This document shows positions 4,479 to 27,402 of a DNA stretch of 36,985 bases, in pieces (positions within the stretch are counted from its first letter, which is position 1; every line of letters starts with the position of its first letter). The notes beneath the pieces were generated by a model. The model searched no databases, had not been told where the DNA came from, and saw nothing but the letters and a program-made list of their open reading frames with translations. The stretch lies in the sequence record DRR378314_377. One strand, given 5' to 3'. Position numbers and translations under genes: made by a program.

Positions 4479-4826
4479 CTAGAAGCCCCAGGTGGTCAGG
4501 TTCGAAGGTGGTTCCCCGTTCGCCAGGCTGTTCAGCCCGCGTACGCAGCGCACGATCCACCAGATCACGATGATCACCAGCAACAGCCAGCCGATCAACG
4601 CCAGCGTGGTGATGCCCGCGATCAGGTTGTACAGCAGGCCGATCCAGAAGGTGCGGTACTGGAAGCGGAAGTGGGCCTGGTGCGGCTCCGGCGCGTCCGG
4701 CGCCTGCAGATGGGCGATCACCGCGCCCACCAGCGCCGTGACGCCGCCGGTGAGCAGGCCGATCAGCAGCAGCGCGTAGTTGATCCGGACCAGCTGGGAG
4801 CGGGTTTCCGCACTGCTCTCGCTCAC
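4479..4826 (-). CDS. DUF4870-like small inner-membrane protein
   Basis: About three TM segments with the motifs HFRFQYRTFW and WWIVRCVRG. GTG start overlaps the upstream TGA (GTGA). Confidence 0.7.
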   Translation of the reverse strand: MSESSAETRSQLVRINYALLLIGLLTGGVTALVGAVIAHLQAPDAPEPHQAHFRFQYRTFWIGLLYNLIAGITTLALIGWLLLVIIVIWWIVRCVRGLNSLANGEPPSNLTTWGF

Positions 4827-5101
4827 GGCATTTCCTGGTCGGTCAGATCCGGTGCCGGGGCGTAGCAGGTGGCCATGCACTCATCCATGGTCTCGAACGG
4901 CACCTGGCCTTCGCAGCCGCCCCAGGCGAATTCCTGGCAGCTTTCGCTATCACTGTCGTAGTAATAGCCCGGTATGGCGGCGCGGCACTGGCCGCTGTCC
5001 GGCGCCTGGTGGCAGGCGTCCGGCAGGGGGTGGGCGTTGCGTCCGCTCTGGCAGCCGGCCAGCGTCAGGACAAGGGCGGACAGGATCAACAGGACACGCA
5101 T
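4823..5101 (-). CDS. BPTI/Kunitz-type serine protease inhibitor domain lipoprotein
   Basis: Lipobox LAGC. Six Cys in Kunitz spacing (C..GQCRA..YYYD...C.EF.WGGC.G..F....EC...C). AAGGAG RBS. Confidence 0.85.
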   Translation of the reverse strand: MRVLLILSALVLTLAGCQSGRNAHPLPDACHQAPDSGQCRAAIPGYYYDSDSESCQEFAWGGCEGQVPFETMDECMATCYAPAPDLTDQEMP

Positions 5102-5157
5102 CGGTGCTTCTCCTTGTGCGGTGGTAGCCCACACTATACCCGGACCGGCGGACGGTC

Positions 5158-5217
5158 TCAGCCCATCAGTTTGCCGCGGAACAGGAAAAACACCGCGCCC
5201 AGCAGGCACAGCCCCGC
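5158..5217 (-). pseudogene. 3' remnant of a DMT-family (DUF486-like) small membrane protein gene
   Basis: Reads AGLCLLGAVFFLFRGKLMG-stop with no start codon, beginning 2 nt after the P450 stop. Resembles the conserved C-terminus (W)AGLCLLGAV(Y/F)FxFR of DUF486 proteins as I recall it. Confidence 0.55.
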
Positions 5218-5219
5218 CT

Positions 5220-13014: not shown

Positions 13015-13581
13015 TTAATGCGCGTGCCCGCTGCCTCCGTGGTTGTGCCCGTGCCCTGACGGCGTTGTCGCGTGCTCGCCGTCACCGCCGGTCAGGTTAG
13101 CCCATTGCGATTCGGACATGTCCGGCAGGACATGCAATAGCGCCACGATGTCCCAGAGTGTCTCGTCGTCGTGGCTGGGGCCCCAGGCCGGCATGCCGCT
13201 CATTTTAATGCCGTGTTTGATCGTCCAGAATGCGCGGCGCGGGTCATGGATGCCGTGATCGGTCAGGTCCGGTGGTTGTGGATAGAGCCCGTCGCGCATG
13301 GCGCCGCTGCCTTGGCCCGGCGCCAGGTGGCAGCCGACGCACATGGCTTGGTATTGTTCCGCGCCCGCAGCCACGCGAGCGGGGTCGGAGAGGTCCCCGG
13401 GGACCGTTATGTCCTCCGCCCGGGCATCCACCGAGCGATGGCGGGCATAGCCGATCAACGCCTCGGTGGCCGACCAGTGCGGCTCATCGGCCGCGAAATT
13501 GTAGGCGCCGCTGACAACAAACACGCCCGCGCCCAACAGCAACAGGGCCACCAGCACCGACCACGCTTTTAATGTTTTCAT
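13015..13581 (-). CDS. Membrane-anchored c-type cytochrome with His-rich tail (CopM-like position in the cop cluster)
   Basis: CxxCH (CVGCH), IKHGIKMSGMPAW and C-terminal HGHNHGGSGHAH. GAGGAG RBS. Confidence 0.8.
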   Translation of the reverse strand: MKTLKAWSVLVALLLLGAGVFVVSGAYNFAADEPHWSATEALIGYARHRSVDARAEDITVPGDLSDPARVAAGAEQYQAMCVGCHLAPGQGSGAMRDGLYPQPPDLTDHGIHDPRRAFWTIKHGIKMSGMPAWGPSHDDETLWDIVALLHVLPDMSESQWANLTGGDGEHATTPSGHGHNHGGSGHAH

Positions 13582-13675
13582 AAACGCTCCTCGGATGTGC
13601 ATTTGCGGTAATGTCTTGTGGTGAAAGGGTGCGCCGCCGAGCATCCGTTAATCGGGGCTCGACGGCGCCCGAGGG

Positions 13676-14392
13676 CTAGAACCAGAAGCGAACACCGGCC
13701 ACCAGCGTGGTCTCGGAAACGTCGTCTCCAGCGCCACGGGTTTTGGCGGCGGTATCACCGAACTGCCGTTCCCAGTTCACGCCGATATAGGGCGCGAACT
13801 CGCGGCGGATCTCGTAGCGCAGTCGCAGACCGGCTTCGATGTCCGTGAGACCTTCGCCGATGCCGAGTTCTTCATCTTCCTTGCCGTAAAAGTTGGCTTC
13901 CACCGCCGGCACCAGGATCAGCTTCTGGGTAAACAGAATTTCGTATTCCGCCTCCAACCTCAGGTTGGTGAGTCCTTCCTCACCGACGAACAGGGTGGCC
14001 TCGCTTTCGAACAGATAGGGCGCCAGCCCTTGAACCCCGAAACTGGCCCAGTCCCGGTTCGGATCGTCCGGCTGCCAGTCCCGGCGGGCGCCGAGCTGCC
14101 AGTCCCAGAACGGTGCGAAGGCTCGGTTCCAGGCAACCCGGGTCTCGAAGCCTTCGGTTTCGCCGCCGTTGTCCATCAGGCGTTCGCCTTCGGTGCTGAG
14201 ATAGAGCTTGTTCAGGTCGCCGCCGTACCAGGCGGCGGCTTCCCAGGCGGCCACGGTGCCTTCATCGGCGTCGCGGGCTTCGAACTCATCGACGATCACA
14301 CGGCTGAACGCCGGCTCGTGCTTGTCCACCGCCTGAACCAAGGGTGACAGTGCTAGCAAAGCAGCGGCGGTTATCAGATGTGTCTGTTTCAT
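13676..14392 (-). CDS. copB: Copper resistance outer-membrane protein CopB
   Basis: Motifs WYGGDLNKL, GLAPYLFE and GLRLRYEIRREFAPYIGV, ending in WF. ATGA overlap with the copA stop. Confidence 0.9.
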   Translation of the reverse strand: MKQTHLITAAALLALSPLVQAVDKHEPAFSRVIVDEFEARDADEGTVAAWEAAAWYGGDLNKLYLSTEGERLMDNGGETEGFETRVAWNRAFAPFWDWQLGARRDWQPDDPNRDWASFGVQGLAPYLFESEATLFVGEEGLTNLRLEAEYEILFTQKLILVPAVEANFYGKEDEELGIGEGLTDIEAGLRLRYEIRREFAPYIGVNWERQFGDTAAKTRGAGDDVSETTLVAGVRFWF

Positions 14393-16293
14393 GACCGTGC
14401 CTCCTTCGTCGTTGCGTTGTCGACCACGCGCACCTCGCGGAACATGCCGGCCTCCATGTGGTAAAGCAGATGACAGTGGTAGGCCCAGCGTCCGGTGGCA
14501 TCGGCGCGCACCAGGTAGCTGAGTTTCTCGCCGGGTTTCACGGTGATGGTGTGCTTGCGCAGCAGTCGCCCGCCGCCCAGTTCCAGGTCGCTCCACAGGC
14601 CGTGCAGGTGAATCGGGTGGGTCATCATGGTGTCGTTGACCAGGGTGATGCGCGCCCGCTCGCCGTGGTAAAGCTCCAGGGGTACGGAGTCGGCGAACTT
14701 GATGCCGTTGAAGCTCCACATATAACGGCTCATGTTGCCGGTCAGGTGCAAGACGATCTCGCGGTCCGGCGTCAGGCTGTCCGGCGGGCCGCCGGCGGTC
14801 TCCATGTCCGCGTAGGTGAGGACCTTCCAGTCGCGTTCGCGCAGGCCGATGCCGGGATCGTCGAGCATCGCCGCCGGCGCCATGGCGCGCATGTCCACGC
14901 CCGGCCCGTATTCGGAATCCAGATGCTGGACGGCGCTGGTGCGCGGCGCCAGATCCGGGTTATCCGCCACGAACGCGAACGGCACCTTGTGGTCGCCGTC
15001 GTGCTGCATGCCTTTATGCTGCATCCCGGCATGTTTCATACCACCGTGACCCATGTCGTCGTGCTGCATGCCCTTCATGGCGCCATGGTCCATCTTGCCG
15101 TGATCCATCGCACCGTGGTTCATGCCTTCCATGTCGCCATGGTTCATGCCGGCCATGCCGCCCATACCCATTTCGGTGTGCCCCAACAGCGGCGGCGGGT
15201 CCATCTCCGGCACGGCCGCGCTCATGGCCGGGTCGGGGGTGAGGGTGCCGCGCGCGAAGCCGGAGCGGTCGATGCTTTGCGCGAACACGGTGAACGCTTG
15301 CTTTTTCTCGGGGGTGACGATCACATCGATGGTTTCCGCCACGCCCAGCCGGCATTCATGGAAGCGCACCGGTTTCACCGGCTGCCCGTCCATAGCCACC
15401 ACGGTCATATCCAGGCCGGGGATGCGAATATCGAAGAACGTCATGGCGCTGGCGTTGACGAAGCGCAGCTTCACTCGTTCGCCGGGTTTGAACAGACCGG
15501 TCCAGTTGGCGTTCGGGCTGCGACCGTTAAGCAGGTAGGTATAGGTATAGCCGGTGACGTCGGCGAGGTCGCTCTGGCTCATGCGCATGGTGTTCCACAT
15601 GTGCCGGTCCTTGAGCGTTTGCATCACGCCTTTTTCACGGAAGTCGCGCAGCGTGTCGAAGATCGTGCGCTCGTTGAAGTTGTAGTAGTGACTGAGCTTT
15701 TTAAGGGTGGCGTAGATTTGCTCGGGTTTTTCGTCGCTCCAGTCGGACAGCACCATCACGTAGTCCCGGTCCACCGGTTGCGGATCCGCCTCGGCGGGAT
15801 CGATGACGATGGCGCCGTAGACCCCGCTTTGCTCCTGGAAACGGGAATGGCTGTGATACCAGTAGGTACCGTTTTGCTTCACCGGGAAGCGATAAGTGAA
15901 GGTCTCGCCGGGCGCGATGCCGTCGAACGATAACCCCGGCACGCCGTCCATCTGAAAGGGAAGCAGCAGCCCGTGCCAGTGGATGGAGCTGGTTTCCGGC
16001 AGGTAGTTGGTGACGTTCAGAGTCACGGTGTCGCCTTCGCGCCAGCGCAGGGTGGGTGCCGGCAGGCTGCCGTTGATCAGCGTGGCCGGGCGCGTGGTGC
16101 CGGTGATATTCACATCGGCGCCGCCGATGGCCAGGTTAAAGGTGTTGCCGCTAAGCGTGGCGGCGCCGGTCTGCCCCTGGCTGGCGAGCAGTTTGGCGGG
16201 GCTCATGCCGAGTCCGCCGATGCCGAGAGCGCCGGTGCCCAGGGCCAGACCCTGGACGAAGCGACGACGCCCCATAAGAGGTGAAGTGGTCAT
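14389..16293 (-). CDS. copA: Periplasmic multicopper oxidase CopA (PcoA family)
   Basis: Tat signal RRRFVQG. Cu ligands HWHG, WYHSH, HPIHLHG and HCHLLYHMEAGM. Met/His-rich MxHG insert. Confidence 0.93.
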   Translation of the reverse strand: MTTSPLMGRRRFVQGLALGTGALGIGGLGMSPAKLLASQGQTGAATLSGNTFNLAIGGADVNITGTTRPATLINGSLPAPTLRWREGDTVTLNVTNYLPETSSIHWHGLLLPFQMDGVPGLSFDGIAPGETFTYRFPVKQNGTYWYHSHSRFQEQSGVYGAIVIDPAEADPQPVDRDYVMVLSDWSDEKPEQIYATLKKLSHYYNFNERTIFDTLRDFREKGVMQTLKDRHMWNTMRMSQSDLADVTGYTYTYLLNGRSPNANWTGLFKPGERVKLRFVNASAMTFFDIRIPGLDMTVVAMDGQPVKPVRFHECRLGVAETIDVIVTPEKKQAFTVFAQSIDRSGFARGTLTPDPAMSAAVPEMDPPPLLGHTEMGMGGMAGMNHGDMEGMNHGAMDHGKMDHGAMKGMQHDDMGHGGMKHAGMQHKGMQHDGDHKVPFAFVADNPDLAPRTSAVQHLDSEYGPGVDMRAMAPAAMLDDPGIGLRERDWKVLTYADMETAGGPPDSLTPDREIVLHLTGNMSRYMWSFNGIKFADSVPLELYHGERARITLVNDTMMTHPIHLHGLWSDLELGGGRLLRKHTITVKPGEKLSYLVRADATGRWAYHCHLLYHMEAGMFREVRVVDNATTKEARS

Positions 16294-16343
16294 GTCACGA
16301 CTCCTGAATAGAAAGAGGTGCGCCCACGGGCGCATGGAACCTT

Positions 16344-16715
16344 TTAAATCGGGAGTAGTGCGGACGGTGGCCGCCAGGGGGAGGCGTGGAAGCCGGCGAG
16401 CCGCTCGCCGGCGCGGGCGATGTGACGCCTGGGGGTGACCAGGGGCGGTCGCGCCGGCGCCAGGCTGGCCGGCATGCCGTTGGCCTGGCAGGCCTGGGTG
16501 CAAGAGCAGGGCGCGCTATCATGGACGTTGCCCTGGCAATGGATCTGAACGCTGGCGCTGTCGGCTTGCGCGCCCGCGCACGGCATTTCACTGGTGGTGC
16601 CGTGTGCCGACCCCGCCATCACGTGAGCCGCCTGTACCGGCGACCACAGCAGCCCGCCCGCCAGCCAGAGCAGCAGAATCAGAAAACCAGGGCGGGACCG
16701 CAGTGATGAATTCAT
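16344..16715 (-). CDS. CopL-like leader/regulatory protein with signal-like N-terminus, Cys cluster and C-terminal RPP
   Basis: Directly upstream of copA. Hydrophobic N-terminus ending VQA, then CSCTQAC and GFHASPWRPPS. Confidence 0.7.
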   Translation of the reverse strand: MNSSLRSRPGFLILLLWLAGGLLWSPVQAAHVMAGSAHGTTSEMPCAGAQADSASVQIHCQGNVHDSAPCSCTQACQANGMPASLAPARPPLVTPRRHIARAGERLAGFHASPWRPPSALLPI

Positions 16716-16721
16716 AGTAGA

Positions 16722-16753
16722 ACTATAAAACCCCGGGGCAGCCCCGGGGTCAA
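16722..16753 (-). promoter_or_regulatory. MerR-type long-spacer promoter with a dyad operator upstream of the copL-like gene; may also be the SDR terminator
   Basis: Minus strand TTGACC-20 nt-TATAGT. The perfect dyad ACCCCGGGGC-T-GCCCCGGGGT starts inside the -35 and is followed by a T-run. Confidence 0.5.
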
Positions 16754-16777
16754 GCCGCAACCTGTGGCCGACGACGG

Positions 16778-17560
16778 TTAGCGGCGCACGCCGCTGGCAT
16801 TGAGGTGGCTGCCGCCGTCCACCAGCAGCGCTTCGCCGGTGACCAGGTCGCCGCCGATCACCAGCCCCAGCACCGCCTGGGCCACGGTTTCCGGCGAGGC
16901 GGCGTCATTCAGGGCGGCGCCGGCCTTGGTCTTGGCCAGCAGGTTGGCGTAAGCCTCCTTGCCCAGCCCTTTCTCCAGCCATTCGCCCTGCACGAAGCCC
17001 GGGCAGATGGCGTTGACGCGGATCTCCGGGCCCAGCACCCGGGCCAGGGATTTGGTCATTGTCAGCAGGGCGCCCTTGGAGGCGGCGTAGGCGATCGAGC
17101 TGCCCACCCCGGCGAGGCCGGCGATGGAGGCCATGTTGATCACCTGGGCGGTGCCCGCCTGGCGCAGCGCTTTCTCGGCGGCGCGGGTCATCTGGTAGGG
17201 CCCCACGGTGTTCACCGCGTAGAGGTGCAGGAAGTCGTCCTTGCTCAGGCCGTCCAGATCCTGGTGGGCGCAGAATTTGGTGGTGCCGGCGTTGTTGACC
17301 AGCACGTCCAGGCGGCCGAACTCCGCCAGGGTCGCTTCCACCAGGGTCTGGCACTGGGTGTCGTCGGACACGTCCGCCTGCTGAACCAGGGTGCGGACGC
17401 CGAACGCCTCGCAATCCTTGGCCACGGCGCGGGCGCCCTCTTCGTTACGGCTGTAATTGATCACTACGTGGCAGCCCTGTTCCGCGAACAAACGGGCGGT
17501 GGCGGCGCCGATGCCGGAGGACGAACCGGTGATCAGAGCCACGGCGTTTTTTATCTTCAT
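16778..17560 (-). CDS. Classical short-chain dehydrogenase/reductase
   Basis: Motifs TGSSSGIG, NNAG, YAASK and RVNAICPG. Confidence 0.9.
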   Translation of the reverse strand: MKIKNAVALITGSSSGIGAATARLFAEQGCHVVINYSRNEEGARAVAKDCEAFGVRTLVQQADVSDDTQCQTLVEATLAEFGRLDVLVNNAGTTKFCAHQDLDGLSKDDFLHLYAVNTVGPYQMTRAAEKALRQAGTAQVINMASIAGLAGVGSSIAYAASKGALLTMTKSLARVLGPEIRVNAICPGFVQGEWLEKGLGKEAYANLLAKTKAGAALNDAASPETVAQAVLGLVIGGDLVTGEALLVDGGSHLNASGVRR

Positions 17561-17632
17561 GCTTATAATCCCGAGACAAACGAAAAAGAAAATCGACGTT
17601 AACACGCTGGCCGCTAAAAGCGCATCGGGTTC

Positions 17633-18334
17633 CTAGGAGGCCGGGCCGGCGGCCTGGCGGAACAGCCCGGCCAGGTCGTCGAGCTGCTCGTGCAGTTCGC
17701 CGTTCACTTCCTTGGTCAGCACATGCAGCAGGATCATCGCGTTGATCGGCGCGTCGGAGCCGTCCGGGTGACGGAAGCGGCCGACGAAACAGCGATTCAG
17801 TTCGCCCAGATTGCGGTAGGCCCGGTCCATGTCTTCCAGGTTCAGCGGCAGGTCGGGGTTGTCCCGTTTCGCCAGGTAGCGGCGCAGCAGGAAGAAACCG
17901 GCGGCGCGGGTCAGGGTTTCCGTTTCCGTGCTCACCGGCAGGTGGAACAGGGCCATGGGCCGCAGGAAGCGGGTGTGCGGGCAGTCGCTGAGCGCGCACA
18001 CCAGCCCGAACAGTGAACTGAGCGCCCGTTGCGCGGTGGTGTCCAGCCGGTATTCCCGTTCCCGGGTGGTGACCCTTAAATGGATGGGATCGAAGGAGCG
18101 GCCCAGTTGGTGATCGGGGAGCAGCCACGCCAGGTTGCGGGCGATCGGACAATAGCGGTGTTCGTCGCGGCTCAGCGGGCAGTGGGAACACTGGCAGTGT
18201 TCCAGCAGGGCCCAGTCCGGGGGCACGAAATCCGGGTCCACGGCCAGGCCGTGGCTCTCCGGTTCCTGGTGCAACTTGATGTGGGTTACCTGCCCGTCGG
18301 TGTCGGTCAGCTGGTAGTGGATATCAGGCTGCAT
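17633..18334 (-). CDS. Cys-rich conserved hypothetical protein (DUF6901-like)
   Basis: Motifs PDWALLEHCQCSHCPL, YCPIA and CALSDCPHTRFLRPMALFHLP. Start overlaps the kinase stop. Confidence 0.6.
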   Translation of the reverse strand: MQPDIHYQLTDTDGQVTHIKLHQEPESHGLAVDPDFVPPDWALLEHCQCSHCPLSRDEHRYCPIARNLAWLLPDHQLGRSFDPIHLRVTTREREYRLDTTAQRALSSLFGLVCALSDCPHTRFLRPMALFHLPVSTETETLTRAAGFFLLRRYLAKRDNPDLPLNLEDMDRAYRNLGELNRCFVGRFRHPDGSDAPINAMILLHVLTKEVNGELHEQLDDLAGLFRQAAGPAS

Positions 18335-19781
18335 GGGCACGCTTCTTTTCCGCCAGCGGCAGGCGGATGTCGATGCGGGTACCTTCGCCGGGCGCGCTGG
18401 TGGCGGTGAGGGTGCCGCCGTGGCGCTGAATAATGTCCTGGGAGATGGACAGCCCCAGGCCGGTGCCCTGGCCAATCGGCTTGGTGGTAAAGAACGGCTC
18501 GAAGATCTGTTCCAGCTGGGCCGCCTCCATGCCCGGGCCGTTGTCGGTCACCGACAGGCAATACGACTGCTCGTCGCTGTGCGCTTCGATGCGGATCTCG
18601 CCATCCTGCTCCACCGCCTGGGCGGCGTTGACCAGAATGTTCATCAGCACTTGAGAGAGCTGGCTCTCCGAACCGTTCACCGGCGGCAGATCCGGCGGCA
18701 GGTGGGTGGTGACCCGCACGCGCTCCAGTTCGTGGCGTGCCAGGTTCATGGACGTGGCCACGCAGCGGGACAGATCCACCGGCTGATAGCGTTCCTGCTC
18801 GTTATGGGAAAAGTGCTTCAGGTCGCGGATGATTTTCTTGATCCGGTCGATGCCTTCGCTGGTTTCGCGCATCAGGTGGGGATGATCGTTAAGAATCATT
18901 TCCAGCGAATCCATATTCAGGCGCAATGACTGTTCCGCCTGCAGAAATTGTTCAAAGCGTTCCGGGCTGATACGGCGGCGCAGCCCGGCGATCACTTTCG
19001 ACAGTGTGGTCAGGTACTGCTCGCTGCGGCGCAGGTTGGCGGAGACGAAGGCAATCGGGTTATTGATTTCGTGGGCGATGCCCGCGGAAATCGTGCCCAG
19101 GGAGGCCATTTTTTCCGAATGCAGCAGCATCGACTCCACCTGGTTGATCTTATCGTCCTTGTCGCGCACCGCCTGGATCAGTTCACTGTTCTGCGCCTTG
19201 ATCTGAGTGATGTCGGTGCCGAAATAAATATAGCCGTCGTCCTCATCGGTGATGTACGACAACGGGAAAATAAACATATTCACCCAGTACAGCTCACCGT
19301 CCTCGCCACGGCCGCACACTTCGCCGCTCCAGACGCCGCGCCGCGCCTGTTCGCAGCGCATGAAATGCGCGCTCAGTTCGGGGCGGTCCTTGGGGTGATG
19401 CATGCTTTCGTGCTGGCCGATCAACTGCCGGAAGGAAAAACCGCTGAGTGACAGAAAGCGGTCGTTGGCGAAGGTAATGATGCCTTTTTCGTTGGTGGTC
19501 ATTACACAGTATTCATCGATGATCCGCGCCAGCGGACCGAGCACCCGTTTGTTGAGTTTGTACTCGTCCGCGTTCACTTCGATCAACCGCAGTTTGCGGC
19601 CGAAGGCGCTCTGGCTCAGCGAGGCGAATTCCGACAACCTGGCTTCCACGTTCATGGAGGCCCGGTAGGTTTTGTACATGAAGAAAATGATGATCAGCAG
19701 GATCACCGTGGAGGACATCAGAAACAGCCCCTGGCTCCCCAGCCCGGCAAACGGCCCCTGTAACGATGTAAATAGATCCAT
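18324..19781 (-). CDS. PAS-domain sensor histidine kinase (NtrB-like HisKA/HATPase)
   Basis: One N-terminal TM, PAS (ITFANDRF...WSGE), H-box AHEINNP, N-box NILVNA, DNGPG, FEPFFTTK and GTGLGL. Confidence 0.9.
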   Translation of the reverse strand: MDLFTSLQGPFAGLGSQGLFLMSSTVILLIIIFFMYKTYRASMNVEARLSEFASLSQSAFGRKLRLIEVNADEYKLNKRVLGPLARIIDEYCVMTTNEKGIITFANDRFLSLSGFSFRQLIGQHESMHHPKDRPELSAHFMRCEQARRGVWSGEVCGRGEDGELYWVNMFIFPLSYITDEDDGYIYFGTDITQIKAQNSELIQAVRDKDDKINQVESMLLHSEKMASLGTISAGIAHEINNPIAFVSANLRRSEQYLTTLSKVIAGLRRRISPERFEQFLQAEQSLRLNMDSLEMILNDHPHLMRETSEGIDRIKKIIRDLKHFSHNEQERYQPVDLSRCVATSMNLARHELERVRVTTHLPPDLPPVNGSESQLSQVLMNILVNAAQAVEQDGEIRIEAHSDEQSYCLSVTDNGPGMEAAQLEQIFEPFFTTKPIGQGTGLGLSISQDIIQRHGGTLTATSAPGEGTRIDIRLPLAEKKRAHAA

Positions 19782-19786
19782 GCGGG

Positions 19787-20239
19787 TTACTCCCCGTCGT
19801 AACCCATGCTTCTGAGGGCTTCGCGCTGGTCGCGAACGGTCTGCGCGAGAATTTTATTTTCCACCAGGATATCGCGGAATTTCAGACCCTCCTCGACACT
19901 TTCCAGCAACTGGTCGTCGTCCCAGGGTTTGGGCACGAAGCGGAAGGCGCCGGCCTGGTTGATGGCGGACATCAGGGTGTCGATATCGATCACGCCGGTG
20001 AGCAGGATACGGATGGTATCCGGCTGCATGGTCCGCAACTCCTGCAGCATCTCAATGCCGTCCATGTCCGGCATCCGGTAATCGGTGATCACCGCGTCGA
20101 ACACGGTGGTGCGGGCGCGCCGTAACGCGGTGGCGGCGTCCGTGTAGGTTTCCACTTCCCAGTCCGGCCGCGTCGCCAGAACCCGGTTCAGCGCCTTGAG
20201 AATATAATCTTCGTCGTCGACAACCATGATGCGGTACAT
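19787..20239 (-). CDS. Response regulator with a receiver domain plus short helical tail and no DNA-binding domain
   Basis: Motifs VVDDE, ITDYRMP (phospho-Asp), LLTG and FVPKPW. Confidence 0.9.
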   Translation of the reverse strand: MYRIMVVDDEDYILKALNRVLATRPDWEVETYTDAATALRRARTTVFDAVITDYRMPDMDGIEMLQELRTMQPDTIRILLTGVIDIDTLMSAINQAGAFRFVPKPWDDDQLLESVEEGLKFRDILVENKILAQTVRDQREALRSMGYDGE

Positions 20240-20406
20240 GGTGATCTCCCCTTGCCCCATGAATCTGCTCAAATTATCGGCGCCGCTGGTTAAAAAGTCA
20301 TCACCGTTCACGGCGCGCTCATTTATTCTACGAAGATACTACTACGGATTCCGCTTGAACAATCCATTTCATCGCCTTGCCGGGACCCCTTGTCGCCCCG
20401 TAATTC

Positions 20407-20838
20407 TCAGGCGCCGCCCGGGGTGATGATGGATTTGGTCACCGAACCGGTGGCGATCAGCTTCTCGCTGCCGTCGGGTTTCACCGCCAAGGCGTCCGCG
20501 CGCATTGCCGCCAGGGTCCGGCCGAGCCGGTCCACGCGGGCGCGGATAACCACCCGGTCGCCTTTGAAGGCGGCGCGCAGCACACTGGTGTGGGTCTCAA
20601 TCGACACCGGATGCTTGTCCGCCTCCAGCAGGGTCAGGCAGGCGAAGAAGCAGGCCACGTCGAAGAACGTGTAGAGCATGCCACCGTGAAGCGAGCCCTC
20701 CGGGTTGAGGGTGAAGTCGTTGAGTTCGATTTCCACTTCGCTTTCGCCGTCGGCGGCCTTATGCAGGCGCAGGCCACAGGCGCGGTGAAGCGGGTGGGAC
20801 AGCACGTCGTCACGGACTTCTTCGAAACGGCTGGGCAT
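20407..20838 (-). CDS. PaaI-family thioesterase (hotdog fold)
   Basis: NPEGSLHGGMLYTFFD motif. AAGGAG RBS. Confidence 0.85.
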   Translation of the reverse strand: MPSRFEEVRDDVLSHPLHRACGLRLHKAADGESEVEIELNDFTLNPEGSLHGGMLYTFFDVACFFACLTLLEADKHPVSIETHTSVLRAAFKGDRVVIRARVDRLGRTLAAMRADALAVKPDGSEKLIATGSVTKSIITPGGA

Positions 20839-20894
20839 ATCATTCTCCTTGGCCGGGTGTGTCAGGGGCGTTGAGTATAGGACAAAATGTCCGG

Positions 20895-20923
20895 TTGCCG
20901 AACGAGGTAGAGGCCGGTAGCAT
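20895..20923 (+). promoter_or_regulatory. Putative sigma70 promoter of the czcI-like/czcCBA operon
   Basis: TTGCCG-17 nt-TAGCAT, ending 7 nt before ATG 20931. No SD at normal spacing. Confidence 0.5.
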
Positions 20924-20930
20924 TTAGTTC

Positions 20931-21269
20931 ATGATCCGTCTTCTGAATGCCCTCACACTCCTTGCGGTCCTGACCAACAGCCTGGTCTGGAGTGGCGATG
21001 TGGTGGCGCATACCCTGGACAAGGACGGACATTCCCACGCTGAGGCCACCAACGAGCCCTCCCAGCTTCACATCGTCACCTCCACGCCTCAATCGGACGA
21101 CGGAGACGGTGATCGGCATCACTGCTGCCATCAGGCTTCCCACTTGAGCGGACTGAGTGCGGTCCCGGTGGCATTTACGGTGATTAGTAGCCCGGCATTG
21201 TCGATTGCTCCCAGCAGTCCTCCTATCAGCGGATTCTTTCGCTCCCCCTTCCGACCTCCCTCTGTCTGA
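20931..21269 (+). CDS. CzcI-like leader protein with signal-like N-terminus, HHCCH and C-terminal RPP
   Basis: First ORF of the RND operon. Hydrophobic N-terminus, then DGHSH, RHHCCHQASH and GFFRSPFRPPSV. Confidence 0.75.
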   Translation: MIRLLNALTLLAVLTNSLVWSGDVVAHTLDKDGHSHAEATNEPSQLHIVTSTPQSDDGDGDRHHCCHQASHLSGLSAVPVAFTVISSPALSIAPSSPPISGFFRSPFRPPSV

Positions 21270-21333
21270 TTCACTGGACAAGTTTGACGGCGCTTCAGCG
21301 CCGATTTGATTCCCTGAATCACGCATACAGAGG
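21259..21333 (+). promoter_or_regulatory. Hairpin able to sequester the czcC Shine-Dalgarno
   Basis: Nested complementary pairs CCTCTGT(21259-65)/ACAGAGG(21327-33), TGATTCA(21267-73)/TGAATCA(21315-21) and CGGCGC(21288-93)/GCGCCG(21298-303). Confidence 0.6.
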
Positions 21334-21338
21334 TCTTT

Positions 21339-22688
21339 ATGAACCGACCGTGGAAGTTGGTCGTGCCGGCGGCGTGTGTCGCCCTCGGCCTGGCGGGTCC
21401 TGTGCCCGCCGATCAGTTCAGCATGGGGCGGGTGGGCGATTATCTGGCCGAAAAGCCGGTTAACGAATCCGTCTCTCTTTCACTGCAGCAGGCGCTGGAA
21501 AAGGCGCTCCGGCGTAACAGTGCGCTGCAGTCGGCGCGCGCTGGCGTCGGACGTTTCGAGGGCCGTCTGACACACGCCAGTCGGTGGTTGCCCGCCAATC
21601 CGGAATTATCTCTGCAGGTCGCGGAGAGGGACCAGGACGGACAATCCAGTACCGATAAGGGCATCCGATTGTCCCAGGAAATTTGGATTGGCGGGCAACG
21701 GGGGCTTGGTAAAGCGGCGGCGTCCGCACGGTTGACCGCCGCCGAGCAACGGCTTGCTTTTCTCGAAACCAGTGTGCGCGCGCGAGTGCGCCTTGCCTAT
21801 CTGGAAGCCTTGCTGGCCCGGGAAAGCGTTGAAACCGCTGAGCGAGCCGAGACCCTGACTGGAAAACTTTACCAGTTTGCGTCACAGCGTTTTCAGGCCG
21901 GGGCCGCCACCCAGCTAATACTCAATACCGCCCGTATTGGTGCCGCCCGCGCCCGTGCGGCACTGGTTGATGCCCGCCGGGATCATAAACGGGCTCGATT
22001 GGCGCTGATGGAACTGCTGGTGATGGATCCGGAAAGCGCCCGTTTGCGTTTGACCAGTGAACTGAGCCTGGACCGCTTTAACCTGCCGAGTATGGGCCCG
22101 CTGTTGGGAGAGGCGCTCAAGCGCCGCCAGGACCTGGTCGCCGCGGCCAGGGAGGTTGTCGCCGCGCGCAAGACACTGTCCCTATCAAAACGCCAGCTGA
22201 TTCCAAATCTCAAAGTGTTCGGTTTCATGAAGGAAGAAGAAGGTGCGGACGTTGCGGGTCTGGGCGTGTCCATGCCCATTCCGGTGTGGGATACCCGCTC
22301 CGGTGAAAACCAGGTGGCGCGCGCGGAGCTGGAGCAGGCGCGCATCGAAGAAGATGCGTTGCGCTTGCAGGTTCGCACCGAAGTGATTGGCGCGGTAACC
22401 GACTACAACGCCGCTCGACAACGGCTTGAGGTATTCGGCAAGGATGTCCTGGCCAGCGCCGAGGAAAACGTCCGGCTCACAGAAAAAGCGTTTCGCGCCG
22501 GTAGTGTTGGCGCGCCGACCCTGGCCATGGCCCAGGACGATCTTATCAACACGCGAAGGGAATATCTGGATGCGCTGCGTGAAGCGATTGGCGCCGCCGC
22601 GGCCCTGGAGAGGTCCACTGGCGGTGTGGTGGCGCTGCGTGAAGCCGGAACCGAACAACTGAAGAACGCGGGAGATTCCGAATCATGA
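21339..22688 (+). CDS. czcC: TolC-family outer-membrane factor of heavy-metal RND efflux (CzcC-like)
   Basis: Signal peptide, LPANPELS and LSQEIWIGGQR, two OEP helical repeats. First gene of an OMF-MFP-RND operon. Confidence 0.8.
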   Translation: MNRPWKLVVPAACVALGLAGPVPADQFSMGRVGDYLAEKPVNESVSLSLQQALEKALRRNSALQSARAGVGRFEGRLTHASRWLPANPELSLQVAERDQDGQSSTDKGIRLSQEIWIGGQRGLGKAAASARLTAAEQRLAFLETSVRARVRLAYLEALLARESVETAERAETLTGKLYQFASQRFQAGAATQLILNTARIGAARARAALVDARRDHKRARLALMELLVMDPESARLRLTSELSLDRFNLPSMGPLLGEALKRRQDLVAAAREVVAARKTLSLSKRQLIPNLKVFGFMKEEEGADVAGLGVSMPIPVWDTRSGENQVARAELEQARIEEDALRLQVRTEVIGAVTDYNAARQRLEVFGKDVLASAEENVRLTEKAFRAGSVGAPTLAMAQDDLINTRREYLDALREAIGAAAALERSTGGVVALREAGTEQLKNAGDSES

Positions 22689-23905
22689 AAGTAGCCACGA
22701 CGATCACGACAATGGTGTTAACTCTGGCGTTGGCGGGATGCGGTGATGCTTCTCCCGGACATGACGATGAGACCGGCCACGCCAAAAAAGAGGCGGGCCA
22801 CGAAAGGTCGGAATCGGGCACCGAACACGGCGACCATAATGAAGAAGCGGGCTCGAAAGTCTCTTTAACTTCGGAGCAAAGCGCCTTGTTGAACCTCAAG
22901 ACCGACAAGGTGCCCGGTGGTCGAGCCGATCAAACCATCCAGGTGCCGGCCAGCGCGCATTTCAATGCGGACCGTATCGCCCATGTGGGCCCCTTGCTCT
23001 CGGGCAGAGTGGAGAAAGTGGTTGCCGACCTCGGAGACCGGGTGGAACCCGGTGATCCACTGGCTGTCCTGTCCAGCCCGCGACTGGGCCAGGTCAAGGC
23101 GCGCTACTTGAGAAAACAGGCGGAGTTCGAGGCCGCGGCCGCCGATTTGCGCAGGCAAAGCCGCCTTGCGAAACAGAATATCGTCAGCCAGGCGGACCTG
23201 CTGGACACCCGCGCCCTTTATCGCGGTGCCCGCGCGGAAAGAAACGCCGCAAAGGCGGCGTTGCGGGCCATGGGGCTCACCGCAGAGCAAATAGCCGCGC
23301 TGGATCAGAACGATGACCTGAGCCGGTATGTATTGACCAGCCCCCTGGCCGGTGTCGTGGAAGAGCGCGATCTGGCGCCGGGGCAGATACTTTCGACGGA
23401 GCAGACCCCGATTATGGTGGTCGACGCGAGCTCTCTTTGGGTGTTCGGTCAAGTGTACGAGAAAAACGCGGATTTGGTCGCCGTGGGCCAGCCGGCGCGT
23501 TTCGACACCGTGGACGCAGCGGTCGATGGAAAAATCGACTGGGTGGCCAGCCGGCTTGATCGCGAGACCCGCACTTTGAAGGTCCGTGCGTTGATCGATA
23601 ACTCTTCTCACAACATTAAAGCCGGCCAGTACGGTGATCTGACCATAACCCGCCAGGTGGCCGATCCGGTGCCTTTGGTGCCTGTCGATGCGGTGCAGAC
23701 CATCAACGGGCAGACGCACGTTTTTGTGCCCGGTGACAAAGACGATGAGTATCGTGCCCAGGAAGTGCAAACCGGCGAGGAAGCCAACGGTTTAATCGAG
23801 ATCAAAAGCGGTTTGCAGATTGGCGCTTCCGTAGTGACGTCCGGCGCTTTTGACCTTAAGTCCGCGCTCACCGCCAGCGGTCGTAGCGCCGCGCACGGCC
23901 ACTGA
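22685..23905 (+). CDS. czcB: Efflux RND periplasmic adaptor (CzcB-like) lipoprotein
   Basis: Lipobox LAGC, His/acidic N-terminal region, GDRVEPGDPL, LTSPLAGVV and DRETRTLKVRA. ATGA overlap with czcC. Confidence 0.85.
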   Translation: MKVATTITTMVLTLALAGCGDASPGHDDETGHAKKEAGHERSESGTEHGDHNEEAGSKVSLTSEQSALLNLKTDKVPGGRADQTIQVPASAHFNADRIAHVGPLLSGRVEKVVADLGDRVEPGDPLAVLSSPRLGQVKARYLRKQAEFEAAAADLRRQSRLAKQNIVSQADLLDTRALYRGARAERNAAKAALRAMGLTAEQIAALDQNDDLSRYVLTSPLAGVVEERDLAPGQILSTEQTPIMVVDASSLWVFGQVYEKNADLVAVGQPARFDTVDAAVDGKIDWVASRLDRETRTLKVRALIDNSSHNIKAGQYGDLTITRQVADPVPLVPVDAVQTINGQTHVFVPGDKDDEYRAQEVQTGEEANGLIEIKSGLQIGASVVTSGAFDLKSALTASGRSAAHGH

Positions 23906-23918
23906 TCGGGAGTTCAAT

Positions 23919-26900
23919 ATGATCGAAAGATTGATTGATGCCGCGCTGCGTAACCGCTTGCTGGTACTGGTATTCATGCTCGGTGTCGCCGGTTGGGGGG
24001 TGCTCTCCTGGCGGCAGTTGCCGGTGGATTCGTTCCCGGATGTGACGCCAAGCATGGTGCAGATTTTCACCGCCTCGCCCGGCTTGTCGCCGGAGGATGT
24101 GGAAACCCTGATCAGTTATCCGGTGGAAATATCCATGTACGGCCTGCCGGGTCTGAAGCGGGTGCAGAGCACCTCGATCTTCGGGCTCTCCAGGGTCAAT
24201 GTGTATTTCTCCGAAGACACAGATGTCTACTTCGCACGCCGCCTCGTGATGGAACGACTGGCCAAGGCGCGCGCCGAGATTCCCGGCGACCTTGGCGAGC
24301 CCCAGTTGGGGCCCATCACCAGCGGCCTCGGTCGGGTGATGATGTACACCCTGGAAACCGAGCCGGACAGTGACATTTCGTTGACGGAGCTGCGTGAGCT
24401 GCAGGATTGGGTGGTCAAGCCCATGATGCGCACGGTGCCGGGGGTGACCGGCGTGTTGTCTCTCGGTGGCTATGAAAAGCAGTACCAGGTCCGGCTTGAT
24501 ACGCGCGCTCTACTGGCGCGGGACCTTACCGTCGCGGATGTACGCGGAGCTATTACCGCTAACAATAAGAATGTGGGCGCCTCCTTTATTAATCGCGCCG
24601 GGGAAGAGAACGTGATCCGCGGTTATGGATGGGTGCCCCCGGGTAACGCCGGCTTGGATGCTATCCGTGACATCGTCATCCGTGCCCACGAGAGCACTCC
24701 GGTAACAGTCGGTGACGTGGCGAGTGTGGAGTATGGGCCGGCCATTCGCCGCGGTGCGCAAATTGCCAGTGGTGCCGAATCGGTGGGCGGCTATGTTCTT
24801 AAGCTGCTTGGTTCCAATACCAGTCAAGTCCTAAAGGACGCCAATCAAAAGCTTGAACAAATCAACGGCGCACTGCCCGACGGTGTCAGGGTAAAAGCGT
24901 TCTACTCGCAAAAGGAGTTGATCGATAAGGCGGTGGGAACCGTGGAGTCGGCGTTACTGCAGGGCGCGGTGCTGGTGATATTGATTTTATATCTCCTGTT
25001 GGGGAATCTGCGCTCCACGCTGATCGTGGTCGCCAGCCTGCCTCTCTCCGCGCTGTTCGCGTTCATCGCGATGCGCTATGTGGGGCTATCCGCCAACCTC
25101 ATGAGTCTGGGGGGGTTGGCTATCGGCCTGGGCATGATGGTGGACGGTTCGGTGGTGATCCTGGAAAACATCTTCCGGCATATGGAAAATCGCGCCGAGG
25201 AGAATGTTTCCATGGCCAGGCTGGCCAGTGAGGCGGCGCGTGAGGTGGCGCGCCCCATTGTGTTTGCCAGCAGTATTATCATCATCGTCTTCCTGCCGCT
25301 TTTCACGCTGCAAGGCGTGGAAGGGAAAATGTTCTCGCCGATGGCCTACACCATCGCCTTCGCATTGCTCGGCGCCATGATTGTAGCATTGGTGCTGGTG
25401 CCCGCGCTGATGACCTATGCCTTCAAGAAGGATGGCAACTACGGTGAGCCGCGACTGGTGGGCTGGTTAAAGGATCGTTATCAGCCCGTGCTGGACAAGG
25501 TTATGGCCTGGCCCAAGGTGGTCGCCGGCGCGGCGGTACTGGTTCTGGTGCTGGGTGTATCGGTGTTTCCGCTCCTGGGCAGTGAATTCGTGCCGACCCT
25601 TCGTGAAGGGACGCTCATGGTGCGCTCTACCCTGCCACCGGCTGCCAGCCTGGACAGTGCTATCGGTTATGCCAAACGCATACAAACGGTGTTCGAGGAA
25701 TTCGAACCGGTAACCGGCACCTACTCCAGAGTCGGGCGCGCTGAGGTGGGCGGTGACCCCGAACCCGTAAATGTCATCGCCACCACCATCACACTCAAAC
25801 CCCTTGGTCAGTGGTCCGGCGACTACGACTATGAAGGGTTGCAGTCGGCCATGTCCGATGCGGTGGCGGACCGGCTGCCGGGGCTGGCCAATAATTTCTC
25901 TCAGCCGATTCAGTTACGTACCGACGAACTGTTATCCGGTATCAAGGCACAGATCGCGATCAGTATATTCGGTGAAAACTTCGGAGAACTCGCCCGTATC
26001 GGTGAGCAGGTCAAACGTATCGCGCAAGCCACGCCTGGCGCTGTCGATGTGCGCATGCAGCAGCAAGGGGGCAAGCCGCAGATCCGAATCCGACCGGACA
26101 GGGAGGCGATGGCCCGCTACGGTTTGAGCGTCGACCAGCTGTTCGCCACTGTGGAAACCGGTATCGGCGGCGACGCGGCCGGTCAAGTGTTCGAAGGTAT
26201 TAAGCGCTTTGATCTGTTCGTGCGGCTGCGCGAGGAGCAACGCGACACGGTGTCGGCGATTGAAGACCTTTTGATCCGAACGCCGGCCGGCGCGGTGATA
26301 CCGCTGACCCGCGTCGCCGATGTGGAGCGCTTCATCGGCCCGAAAATGATCTCCCGCTCCAAGGCCAGCCGGCGCCTGTTCGTGCAACTGAACGTGCGCG
26401 GCCGGGACATGGGCGGGGTGGTCACGGAGATACGTCGTAAGGTCGCCGAACAGGTGGATATGCCGACCGGCTATTTCGTCGAATACGGCGGTCAGTTCGA
26501 GAATCAGCAACGGGCCATGAAGCGTCTCTATCTGGTCGTGCCCGTGACTCTGGCGCTGATCTTTCTGCTTCTGTACACCGCCTTTAACAGCTTGCGTTAT
26601 GCCGCGCTGATTTATCTGAATGTGCCGATCGCCACCATGGGTGGGATTTTCGCATTGTGGCTATCGGGCATGTATCTCTCCGTATCCGCCGCCGTCGGCT
26701 TTATCGCCGTGTTCGGCGTCGCGGTACTCAACGGCGTGGTCCTTGTGAGCTACATAAACCAATTGCGTGACGAAGGCATGGACGTTTTCGAAGCCGCCCG
26801 AACCGGCGCCATGCGGCGCTTGAGACCGGTGCTGATGACCGCGCTTACCTCTATGCTGGGCCTGCTTCCGCTGCTGATCGCCGATGGCATTGGCGCCAAC

Positions 26901-27026
26901 GTTCAGCGTCCACTCGCCGCCGTGGTCGTGGGGGGCTTGATAACCTCCACCTTGCTGACCCTGCTGGTCATTCCGGTGGTCTATCCCTGGTTTGCCGGCG
27001 CCCGCCGGGACGATGTTGAATTCTAA
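23919..27026 (+). CDS. czcA: Heavy-metal efflux RND permease (CusA/CzcA family)
   Basis: Motifs LPVDSFPDVT, VDGSVVILEN, EGKMFSPMA, GGQFENQQRA, FGVAVLNG and RLRPVLMTA. Confidence 0.9.
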   Translation: MIERLIDAALRNRLLVLVFMLGVAGWGVLSWRQLPVDSFPDVTPSMVQIFTASPGLSPEDVETLISYPVEISMYGLPGLKRVQSTSIFGLSRVNVYFSEDTDVYFARRLVMERLAKARAEIPGDLGEPQLGPITSGLGRVMMYTLETEPDSDISLTELRELQDWVVKPMMRTVPGVTGVLSLGGYEKQYQVRLDTRALLARDLTVADVRGAITANNKNVGASFINRAGEENVIRGYGWVPPGNAGLDAIRDIVIRAHESTPVTVGDVASVEYGPAIRRGAQIASGAESVGGYVLKLLGSNTSQVLKDANQKLEQINGALPDGVRVKAFYSQKELIDKAVGTVESALLQGAVLVILILYLLLGNLRSTLIVVASLPLSALFAFIAMRYVGLSANLMSLGGLAIGLGMMVDGSVVILENIFRHMENRAEENVSMARLASEAAREVARPIVFASSIIIIVFLPLFTLQGVEGKMFSPMAYTIAFALLGAMIVALVLVPALMTYAFKKDGNYGEPRLVGWLKDRYQPVLDKVMAWPKVVAGAAVLVLVLGVSVFPLLGSEFVPTLREGTLMVRSTLPPAASLDSAIGYAKRIQTVFEEFEPVTGTYSRVGRAEVGGDPEPVNVIATTITLKPLGQWSGDYDYEGLQSAMSDAVADRLPGLANNFSQPIQLRTDELLSGIKAQIAISIFGENFGELARIGEQVKRIAQATPGAVDVRMQQQGGKPQIRIRPDREAMARYGLSVDQLFATVETGIGGDAAGQVFEGIKRFDLFVRLREEQRDTVSAIEDLLIRTPAGAVIPLTRVADVERFIGPKMISRSKASRRLFVQLNVRGRDMGGVVTEIRRKVAEQVDMPTGYFVEYGGQFENQQRAMKRLYLVVPVTLALIFLLLYTAFNSLRYAALIYLNVPIATMGGIFALWLSGMYLSVSAAVGFIAVFGVAVLNGVVLVSYINQLRDEGMDVFEAARTGAMRRLRPVLMTALTSMLGLLPLLIADGIGANVQRPLAAVVVGGLITSTLLTLLVIPVVYPWFAGARRDDVEF

Positions 27027-27075
27027 AATCTGAGAACGGCCGGCATCGTCGATGGCGGCCGATAAGGAGACCGTA

Positions 27076-27402
27076 ATGAAAGAGATAAAAGCTTACGTAC
27101 GAAACAACATGGTCAACAAGGTGATTGACGCCTTAGCGCAGCTGCCGGAGCCGCCTTCGGTGGCGGCCGTTCCGCTGGAGACCTATGGTCACGGCGTCAT
27201 TGACGACGCCTACGGTCGATTACGAATGACAAAGCTGGAAGTCGACATCGCTGATGCCCGCGTGGAGGAGGTCGTGATCGTGATTGAGAGGGCCGCCAGG
27301 ACAGGGGAGGGTCATCCGGGTGACGGCCGAATTCTTGTGGCTGGCGTTGAGGCCGCCTTGCGTATTGATACTGGCGAGCGCGATGAGGACGCTTTGAAAT
27401 GA
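27076..27402 (+). CDS. P-II (GlnB-like) family protein associated with metal efflux
   Basis: Motifs MKEIKAYVR, KLEV, ARTGEGHPGDGRILV and LRIDTGE. AAGGAG RBS. Confidence 0.85.
   Translation: MKEIKAYVRNNMVNKVIDALAQLPEPPSVAAVPLETYGHGVIDDAYGRLRMTKLEVDIADARVEEVVIVIERAARTGEGHPGDGRILVAGVEAALRIDTGERDEDALK

Follow-up and report, generated by a model that had tools for sequence, protein, structure and literature searches.

Two short open reading frames (ORFs) stand at the head of metal-resistance operons in a 36,985-nucleotide (nt) stretch of DNA from sequence record DRR378314_377 (the window, meaning the whole stretch at its full length). ORF-A lies directly upstream of the multicopper oxidase gene copA and ORF-B directly upstream of czcC. 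Judged by their sequences, the two are paralogues, and their architecture together with a weak profile similarity places both, very probably, in the CutF-like/DUF2946 class. We propose that they are cis-acting metal-sensing leaders working as CutF does, which we regard as the probable reading. An earlier note on this DNA had pointed to a shared C-terminal motif and a shared distance from that motif to a cluster of metal ligands. Both ORFs were found at the coordinates it gave, with the translations it stated, and the comparisons below indicate that its observation is real and more than chance. The loci extend an established class; the interpretation is already published and the motif variant is modest.

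The two leaders and their parts are the following.

16344..16715, minus strand: ORF-A, a 123-amino-acid (aa) CutF/CopL-like leader peptide upstream of the multicopper oxidase gene (translation, homologues, sub-threshold full-length DUF2946 match)
16629..16715, minus strand: predicted Sec-type signal peptide, ORF-A residues 1-29, cleaved between ...VQA and A (hydropathy, AlphaFold2 helix; cleavage site by eye)
16488..16508, minus strand: Cys cluster C70-x-C72-x3-C76, at -45/-43/-39 from the Arg (residue counting, relatives)
16362..16394, minus strand: conserved tail G108-F-H-A-S-P-W-R-P-P-S118 of ORF-A (alignments)
16365-16373, minus strand: RPP codons of ORF-A, CGG CCA CCG
20931..21269, plus strand: ORF-B, a 112-aa CutF-like leader peptide upstream of czcC (translation, seven homologues, sub-threshold full-length DUF2946 match)
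20931..21008, plus strand: predicted signal peptide, ORF-B residues 1-26, cleaved between ...VVA and H (hydropathy maximum, AlphaFold2 helix; site by eye)
21117..21143, plus strand: His/Cys cluster H63-H-C-C-H-Q-A-S-H71 (residue counting, relatives)
21231..21263, plus strand: conserved tail G101-F-F-R-S-P-F-R-P-P-S111 of ORF-B (alignments)
21252-21260, plus strand: RPP codons of ORF-B, CGA CCT CCC

Homology of the two leaders and their class

The C-terminus of ORF-A reads ...GFHASPWRPPSALLPI and that of ORF-B ...GFFRSPFRPPSV, each up to the stop. The note had ORF-A end in GFHASPWRPPS; the motif is present, with five further residues after it. The signal-like hydrophobic N-termini that it described were found in both. 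The best 12-residue Kyte-Doolittle window scores 2.6 in ORF-A (residues 12-23) and 2.1 in ORF-B (from residue 4), AlphaFold2 predicts helices at residues 8-23 and 2-22 respectively (the latter with a predicted local distance difference test score of 78-87), and each has a V-x-A site. Beyond this helix both leaders are modelled as low-confidence coil, from alignments of 11-12 sequences, a depth at which disorder and a shallow alignment look the same.

The sequence between the N-terminal segment and the tail had been thought unrelated. BLASTP aligns the two leaders end to end, with 30% identity over ~110 residues (E=1e-7), and hhalign of the cop-type (n=12) against the czc-type (n=11) alignment gives a probability of 96.1% and E=3.3e-9 over the full length. 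The invariant positions common to both are L-x-W-S, A-H, C-x-C/CC-x-Q and G-F-x-x-S-P-x-R-P-P. A family hidden Markov model (HMM) matches two of the 508 stop-to-stop ORFs of the window, ORF-A (E=5e-36) and ORF-B (2e-34), with the next best at 0.037.

As for the metal ligands, the spacings had been counted correctly (the Arg follows 45 residues after C70 and after H63, and 43 after C72 and after C65), and the equivalence read into them does not stand. The joint MAFFT alignment sets PCSCTQACQ against HC-CHQASH and pairs C70 with C65, C72 with C66 and Q74 with Q68. Homologous ligands are thus offset by 1-2 residues, and the exact agreement of 45 with 45 matches non-homologous positions. Nor does the alignment bear out a swapping of ligand modules: because the ligand segments are homologous, differing by point substitutions, the sensors differ by substitutions within one segment and no module has been swapped. 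C70, C72 and C76 are invariant across 12 cop-type relatives, and H64, C66, H67 and H71 across 11 czc-type relatives.

CutF-like proteins have been described in number: nearly 3000, on average two per genome and in different neighbourhoods (PMC8456105), and 5,334 in 29 clusters, whose motifs consist of Cys, of His or of both (PMC9973294). The latter source counts CopL, CruR, SilD and CusD among the members. It reports as the commonest downstream neighbour the outer-membrane factor (CusC/CzcC/SilC) of resistance-nodulation-division (RND) pumps, with multicopper oxidases also present, and argues that a distance of 45 residues would put the metal motif in the periplasmic vestibule of SecY. All four of its rule-based features are found in both leaders: a length below 150 residues (123 and 112 aa), a Pro motif close to the C-terminus (RPP 6 residues from it in ORF-A and 2 in ORF-B), a predicted N-terminal signal peptide (hydrophobic core, V-x-A, AlphaFold2 helix) and closeness to the downstream gene (50 nt to copA, 69 nt to czcC).

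In terms of profiles, DUF2946 (PF11162) scores 12.5 and 15.8 bits against the leaders, below its gathering score of 23.7, with full-length alignments (E=0.25 and 0.025). It matches 10 of 19 diverse relatives at E<=1, the best at 5e-4. No NCBIfam model matches either leader. A protein atlas holds them in unnamed clusters only, with DUF2946 as a lead in 22% of one cluster's members. The CXXC and RAPP motifs of DUF2946 proteins are absent; the leaders have CxCxxxC or HHCCH, and RPP without Ala.

Comparison with characterized systems points the same way as these features and also marks the differences. CutF of Rhodobacter capsulatus (cutFOG), compared here by description and not by sequence, is, like ORF-A, encoded immediately upstream of the gene for a Tat-exported multicopper oxidase and is small. 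It has 118 aa, a C69xxHC73 motif and the tail PEPEGPPPRL (PMC8456105), and is reported to combine a Sec signal, CxxxC and a Pro-rich tail with a stem-loop masking cutO's Shine-Dalgarno sequence (PMC9973294). Further Cys lie upstream of its CxxxC, ~45 residues separate the cluster from the Pro motif, and ORF-A has the corresponding C72-x3-C76. CutF acts in cis, with copper prolonging the stalling; a shielding stem-loop is predicted here too. Its copper-induced stalling in the tunnel occurs at PPP and involves EF-P (bioRxiv 10.1101/2025.02.05.636593). In place of this EF-P-dependent PPP tail, the leaders here have GFxxSP[WF]RPPS, with two prolines and an invariant Arg. Unlike CutF, ORF-B stands before an RND pump and has a His/Cys cluster.

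CruR (Bp2923), the DUF2946 prototype from Bordetella pertussis, resembles the leaders here in being DUF2946-like, with a Cys motif ~45 residues before a motif containing Arg and Pro-Pro, which lies 2-3 residues from its end. CXXC and RAPP stand 45 residues apart in CruR, and more than 2000 DUF2946 proteins keep this spacing to within 1-2 residues. The spacing matters for its function: an insertion of five residues impairs copper control, and RAPP is required for expression (PMC9426467). Arrest has been shown in vitro, the P and A sites being occupied by the two Pro codons (PMC12992588). As reported for CruR, AlphaFold2 gives the leaders a confident signal helix only. CruR differs from them in its CXXC and R-A-P-P motifs, its import operon (a TonB-dependent transporter) and its 162-nt gap. 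It also differs in its logic, since copper relieves the arrest and leads to Rho termination, and both its signal peptide and EF-P are dispensable.

CopL of Xanthomonas (copLAB) occupies the same place upstream of copA-copB as ORF-A, and it is reported not to act in trans (cited in PMC9973294). The ORF in the copL position of an X. campestris plasmid ends in LIRPPIS, with Cys at -45/-43/-41. It has no family HMM match at E<=1, and ORF-A is closer to ORF-B (BLASTP E=1e-7) than either is to it (E=1.5 for ORF-A, 2.8 for ORF-B).

CzcI and CzcI2 of Cupriavidus metallidurans, also compared by description, are small ORFs directly upstream of czcC, as is ORF-B, and CzcI is placed among the CutF-like proteins in cluster 20 of a sequence similarity network (PMC9973294). 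A leaderless transcript is reported for czcI2 (PMC10127602), and the promoter layout described below suggests the same for ORF-A and ORF-B. ApdA, ApdP and SecM share with the leaders a C-terminal Arg and Pro-Pro near the stop and an arrest that controls a downstream gene, as proposed here; in SecM, translocation force releases it. They are not homologous to ORF-A or ORF-B and monitor secretion, not metal. RAPP/RGPP peptides have an R-x-P-P register that is missing here, where the A-site residue after RPP would be Ser.

The tail had earlier been called RAPP-type. W-R-P-P-S and F-R-P-P-S have nothing between R and PP, and the consensus is [aromatic]-R-P-P-[S/T/I] within the block G-F-x-x-[S/P]-P-[F/W/Y]-R-P-P, neither R-A-P-P nor P-P-P. 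The novelty claimed for a shared motif and geometry on efflux and detoxification operons does not hold either, having been described in PMC9973294. The earlier interpretation is thus a mixed case: its design agrees with the published experiments on CutF and CruR, and its novelty, RAPP-type label and module swapping fall away. It is essentially right yet not new, because the geometry and the link to detoxification and efflux are already in print. Our literature searches found no text that describes the RPP tail, a result that falls short of proving its absence from print; the tail may already be displayed in the logos of Fig. S6 or in File S1 of PMC9973294.

Conservation of tail and spacer among relatives

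Word-indexed searches retrieved 9, 7 and 14 relatives (the third adding two), and an exhaustive profile search of 1.84 billion representatives retrieved 18 at E<=1e-3. Seven homologues of ORF-B came from the word-indexed search. Nine close homologues of ORF-A share 66-95% identity with it, begin at the same ATG wherever they are full length and keep the motifs invariant wherever the tail is present. The ORF-A reading frame is intact in 7 Alcanivorax loci.

Among the 34 proteins examined, the two queries included, 31 have [FWYL]RPP followed by 2-6 residues at the C-terminus. In each of these 31, one or more Cys precede the Arg by 42-47 residues, and the distances peak at 45, 43, 42 and 39; this agrees with the spacing of ~45 residues, held within 1-2, of DUF2946 proteins. 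The three exceptions are P0011, with a replaced tail, P0034, with a divergent one, and P0029, which was rejected as a family member, being an unrelated repeat protein.

Because this homologue set had been retrieved with a profile that rewards the tail, which makes the 31/34 partly circular, we added loci sampled by position: ten plasmid copA loci, picked for taxonomic spread among 3070 matching records. Four of the ten have an RPP-tailed ORF directly upstream (two Rhodanobacter, one Dyella, and the Xanthomonas copL position), with gaps of 110-129 nt, and in a Shewanella locus such an ORF lies two genes upstream. These five positive loci have Cys at -45/-43/-39, -45/-43/-41 or -46/-44/-39. In three of the five loci that lack the leader, a divergently transcribed response regulator is found instead. 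The positive loci extend the conservation of tail and spacer well beyond Alcanivorax, as the earlier interpretation would have it.

A tblastn search of ORF-A and ORF-B against plasmids gave no match. A search for related loci with the leader alignment returned loci of the Alcanivorax group only. One further hit, L013, runs antisense to an epimerase gene and was discarded as a false positive.

Proposed mechanism, RNA structure and alternatives

In the mechanism that we think probable, the leaders would be made with a Sec-type signal peptide and exported co-translationally. With the ribosome at the R-P-P codons, the ligand cluster (Cys or His/Cys), 39-47 residues behind, would have left the exit tunnel and stand inside the translocon or just past it. 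Metal bound there would prolong the pause at the diprolyl site; copper would be expected for the CxCxxxC leader of copA-copB, and divalent Zn, Co or Cd for the HHCCH leader of czcCBA. The paused ribosome would cover an anti-Shine-Dalgarno in or just after the RPP codons, and the ribosome-binding site of copA or czcC would be freed. Without metal, the leader would be completed quickly and the stem would re-form. We infer the stalling and its metal dependence from the experiments on CutF and CruR. That metal would switch the operons on is drawn from these experiments and from the detoxifying function of the operons, and the expected specificities from the same experiments, ligand chemistry and context.

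The RNA elements on which the proposal draws are these.

16352..16360, minus strand: anti-Shine-Dalgarno CAC.ACUCC, within the codons for A119-L-L-P122 of ORF-A (minimum free energy (MFE) and centroid folds)
16319..16334, minus strand: GC hairpin, then U-rich tail, in the 50-nt gap between ORF-A and copA (terminator-like scan site)
16296..16304, minus strand: Shine-Dalgarno region GGAGUCGUG of copA (sequence, fold)
16291-16293, minus strand: ATG of copA
21253..21273, plus strand: anti-Shine-Dalgarno GACCUC in the R-P-P codons of ORF-B, with a second arm over the S-V codons and UGAUUCA (MFE = centroid)
21288..21303, plus strand: inner hairpin CGGCGC-UUCA-GCGCCG, then AUUUGAUUCC (terminator-like site, nested in the outer helix)
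21330..21335, plus strand: Shine-Dalgarno GAGGUC of czcC, with the ATG at 21339

In the czc fold, the Shine-Dalgarno GAGGUC is paired with GACCUC, which comprises the last two bases of CGA, all of CCU and the opening base of CCC. The S-V-stop codons form a second helix with a site 45 nt downstream, and the GC hairpin lies inside. This fold has z=-4.89 and -5.28, with 0 of 200 shuffles as stable, and the MFE and centroid structures are the same. The cop fold pairs CAC.ACUCC, located just after RPPS, with GGAGU.GUG from the ribosome-binding site of copA around the GC hairpin, and the ACUCC:GGAGU pairs are unchanged in 7/7 Alcanivorax-group loci. A CutF-type stem-loop shielding the Shine-Dalgarno near the Pro motif is thus predicted at both loci, with z~-5 for czc and a weak z~-2 for cop. 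Pairing of the leader end with the Shine-Dalgarno was found in three of four plasmid copA loci, all Rhodanobacteraceae.

In RNAalifold, the W-R-P-P-S codons of ORF-A (~16362-16375, minus strand) are also paired with those for G-R-R-R in the Tat signal of copA (~16258-16271, minus strand). Both segments are nucleotide-invariant in 7 loci, without covariation, and the pairing may be a GC-rich coincidence.

We modelled a 27-nt ribosome footprint, forced single-stranded and slid codon by codon. For ORF-B, Shine-Dalgarno accessibility rises from 0.34 to ~0.6, only from the P site at F107/R108 onwards; for ORF-A it rises from 0.26 to 0.37-0.40, only from the P site at P116. According to this model, therefore, the RPP codons are the first positions where a ribosome opens the helix. 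The codons at RPP include some that are rare in the 21 genes of the window used for comparison, with CGA at 6.7% of Arg codons and CCT and CCA at 6.2% and 7.5% of Pro codons, which may reflect the anti-Shine-Dalgarno constraint or slow decoding. The same Arg is encoded by CGA in four plasmid copA-upstream ORFs as well.

Several results weigh against a CutF-like mechanism at these two loci. The cop fold is modest (z=-1.8 and -2.05; 8 and 6 of 200 shuffles fold as well), RNAalifold gives a compensatory change in none of its 29 consensus pairs over the seven Alcanivorax-group loci, and at the czc leader the comparison is uninformative because the region is identical in all five genomes. The modelled gain in accessibility is modest, too. 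The three plasmid loci with pairing, belonging to one family, are not independent, and the fourth, the Xanthomonas CopL locus, with its 129-nt gap, has no pairing of leader end and Shine-Dalgarno in the MFE fold. Five of the ten sampled copA loci have no such leader, and the single czcC plasmid locus (Marinobacter, found by tblastn of CzcC) has a 326-nt upstream gap without a leader ORF. To these come the partial circularity of the tail count, the sub-threshold DUF2946 scores and the missing NCBIfam match given above. R-P-P-S is neither the EF-P-independent RAPP of CruR nor the PPP of CutF, and the Pro-rich tail of CutF is itself reported not to be a strong staller when alone (PMC9973294). Finally, CzcI of C. 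metallidurans is reported to act as a periplasmic protein that quenches the CzcCBA pump (PMC10127602).

This last observation is the starting point of the alternative that survives best, which we nevertheless consider unlikely: the mature peptides would function in trans, as a CzcI-like modulator of CzcCBA or as a copper chaperone for the oxidase, with the tail as a protein contact site. Both ORFs have the signal peptides and metal-ligand clusters that such a role would call for, and CutF itself was first proposed to be a chaperone (PMC8456105). CzcI and CzcI2 of C. metallidurans, however, are CutF-like proteins described as lacking the C-terminal Pro motif (PMC9973294), and CutF and CruR are reported to be undetectable in cells and to act in cis only. 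No confident fold is predicted past the signal helix, from shallow alignments, and the invariant tail coincides with the anti-Shine-Dalgarno region. A function in trans can also coexist with the cis-acting mechanism.

More improbable still is a control of the CruR type, in which arrest at RPP would be the default state, relieved by metal, and regulation would fall on transcription through Rho or the gap hairpins. CruR, of the same superfamily, does work by metal-relieved arrest (PMC9426467), and both leader-gene gaps contain a 6-bp GC hairpin with a tetraloop and a U-rich tail, flagged as terminator-like. These hairpins could be attenuators or mere stabilisers of the outer helix. The cop gap hairpin of other Alcanivorax species is of the same shape, although its sequence is shifted and its U-tract is better. 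The logic, however, has the wrong sign, since detoxification genes would be off when metal is present. The gaps are also short, at 50 and 69 nt against 162 nt in cruR, and from the geometry a ribosome paused at RPP or at the ORF-B stop would not reach the hairpins. The U-tracts are weak, and the terminator scan of the window gives 6 sites against 4.2 +/- 2.3 in shuffles.

Chance or compositional similarity between Pro-rich, GC-rich short ORFs of no regulatory role has hardly any probability left: a bare [FWY]RPP tail also occurs in two spurious ORFs of the window and the DUF2946 matches stay below the Pfam threshold, yet the pairwise and profile-profile E-values (1e-7 and 3e-9), the intact ORF-A frame with its invariant motifs and the same architecture upstream of copA in Rhodanobacter, Dyella and Xanthomonas all speak against it.

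Promoters, neighbourhood and meaning of the pair

The features that surround the two leaders are listed here.

16722..16753, minus strand: promoter-like TTGACC, dyad ACCCCGGGG-CTG-CCCCGGGGT, TATAGT (read from sequence)
14389..16293, minus strand: copA, Tat-signal multicopper oxidase of the copA/pcoA type (Pfam and NCBIfam; TIGR01480, 839 bits)
13676-14356, minus strand: copB, downstream of copA (Pfam, NCBIfam)
13015-13644, minus strand: cytochrome c gene, after copB (Pfam, NCBIfam)
21339..27026, plus strand: czcC-like outer-membrane factor, membrane fusion protein and CusA/CzcA-family RND pump (Pfam OEP, HlyD_D23, ACR_tran)

The promoter-like element of ORF-A has a perfect dyad and a 19-20 bp spacer, and its -10 ends 6 nt before the ATG, with no Shine-Dalgarno. 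It is conserved in 6/6 aligned Alcanivorax loci despite a differing upstream flank; the scan had flagged the dyad as a terminator. Such an arrangement is typical of promoters activated by MerR/CueR regulators. The ORF-A promoter would accordingly be of the MerR type, and the transcript would be leaderless because the -10 ends so close to an ATG that has no Shine-Dalgarno. No CueR gene was confirmed in the window; of its two MerR-family genes, one is CadR/PbrR above the cut-off, the other is unassigned, and neither is a confirmed CueR.

Upstream of ORF-B (20895-20930, plus strand) we observed a weak promoter-like TTGCCG-N17-TAGCAT that ends 7 nt before the ATG, also without a Shine-Dalgarno, and a palindrome GGACAAAATGTCC just upstream of it at 20880-20892. 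The site is below the scan threshold, and the region is invariant across the compared genomes.

Across both leader loci the window is 100% identical to contig1 of Alloalcanivorax venustensis ISO4, as found in the related-loci search of genome contigs. The region is a metal-resistance neighbourhood, with the cop operon on the minus strand and the czc operon on the plus strand. The gene that had been labelled copA is a periplasmic Tat-signal multicopper oxidase and not the P-type ATPase of that name. The RND pump matches TIGR00914 with 1117 bits, and the membrane fusion protein scores higher with CzcB/NccB (152 bits, below the cut-off) than with CusB (72 bits). Beyond the pump lie a P-II-like protein, two cation diffusion facilitator (CDF) transporters and the two MerR-family regulators. 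Along with the ligand chemistry, a fusion protein nearer CzcB/NccB than CusB and the nearby CDF and CadR genes suggest that ORF-B would be a divalent-metal leader, and it is a good candidate for such a version before an RND pump.

Between the operons there are genes for an SDR short-chain dehydrogenase, a DUF6901 protein, a PAS histidine kinase, a stand-alone receiver protein and a thioesterase. The DUF6901 protein, the PAS-domain histidine kinase and the receiver-only response regulator, which has no DNA-binding domain, occupy 17633-20311 (minus strand), where Pfam annotation gave no evident link to metal control. The small P-II-like protein (27052-27399, plus strand; PF00543, E=6e-7) lies directly 3' of the RND pump gene. 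Elsewhere in the window, a Kunitz/BPTI protease-inhibitor domain, which is uncommon among bacteria, is encoded in a 156-aa ORF (4826-5293, minus strand; PF00014 at E=5e-14 and 52.6 bits, where the cut-off is 21). At gathering thresholds, no Rfam family matches the window; relaxing the search to E<=1 around the loci brings up two matches, both at chance level.

In terms of variation among four Alcanivorax-group genomes, the segment with ORF-B, czcC and the start of czcB (window ~20830-22930) has ~8 variable columns in 2100 nt, with ~5 or more per 100 nt in its flanks, and the ORF-A/copA side is just 86-92% identical among the compared genomes. This near-invariance against variable flanks and a more divergent cop side suggests a recent exchange or sweep of the czc segment.

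A broader joint reading is tentative and, in our view, rather doubtful as a whole; it combines a tail-based arrest module, a retuned sensor, the gating of a pump by ORF-B and the stacking of controls on leaderless transcripts. The GFxxSP[FWY]RPP[ST] tail may be a distinct CutF-like arrest module that joins the critical Arg of RAPP-type peptides to a plain diprolyl pause. Both leaders may be translated from leaderless transcripts, that of ORF-A from a MerR-type promoter. If this is true, point changes in a homologous nine-residue segment (PCSCTQACQ vs HHCCHQASH) would have retuned the sensor from copper to Zn, Co or Cd. ORF-B would be the first case of an arrest peptide through which periplasmic divalent metal gates the translation of a czcCBA-type RND pump, and a cytoplasmic transcriptional sensor would be stacked on a periplasmic translational one.

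The significance of the class lies in the nascent chain acting as a sensor, one that reports periplasmic metal to its own translating ribosome. To this the loci would add RPP codons that themselves are predicted to serve as the anti-Shine-Dalgarno at czc, a very clean design, a candidate divalent-metal version before an RND pump, and a natural pair of paralogues, from a marine bacterium that is not a pathogen, with different ligand sets on one scaffold. While it opens no new question, such a pair is suited to asking how ligand chemistry sets specificity.

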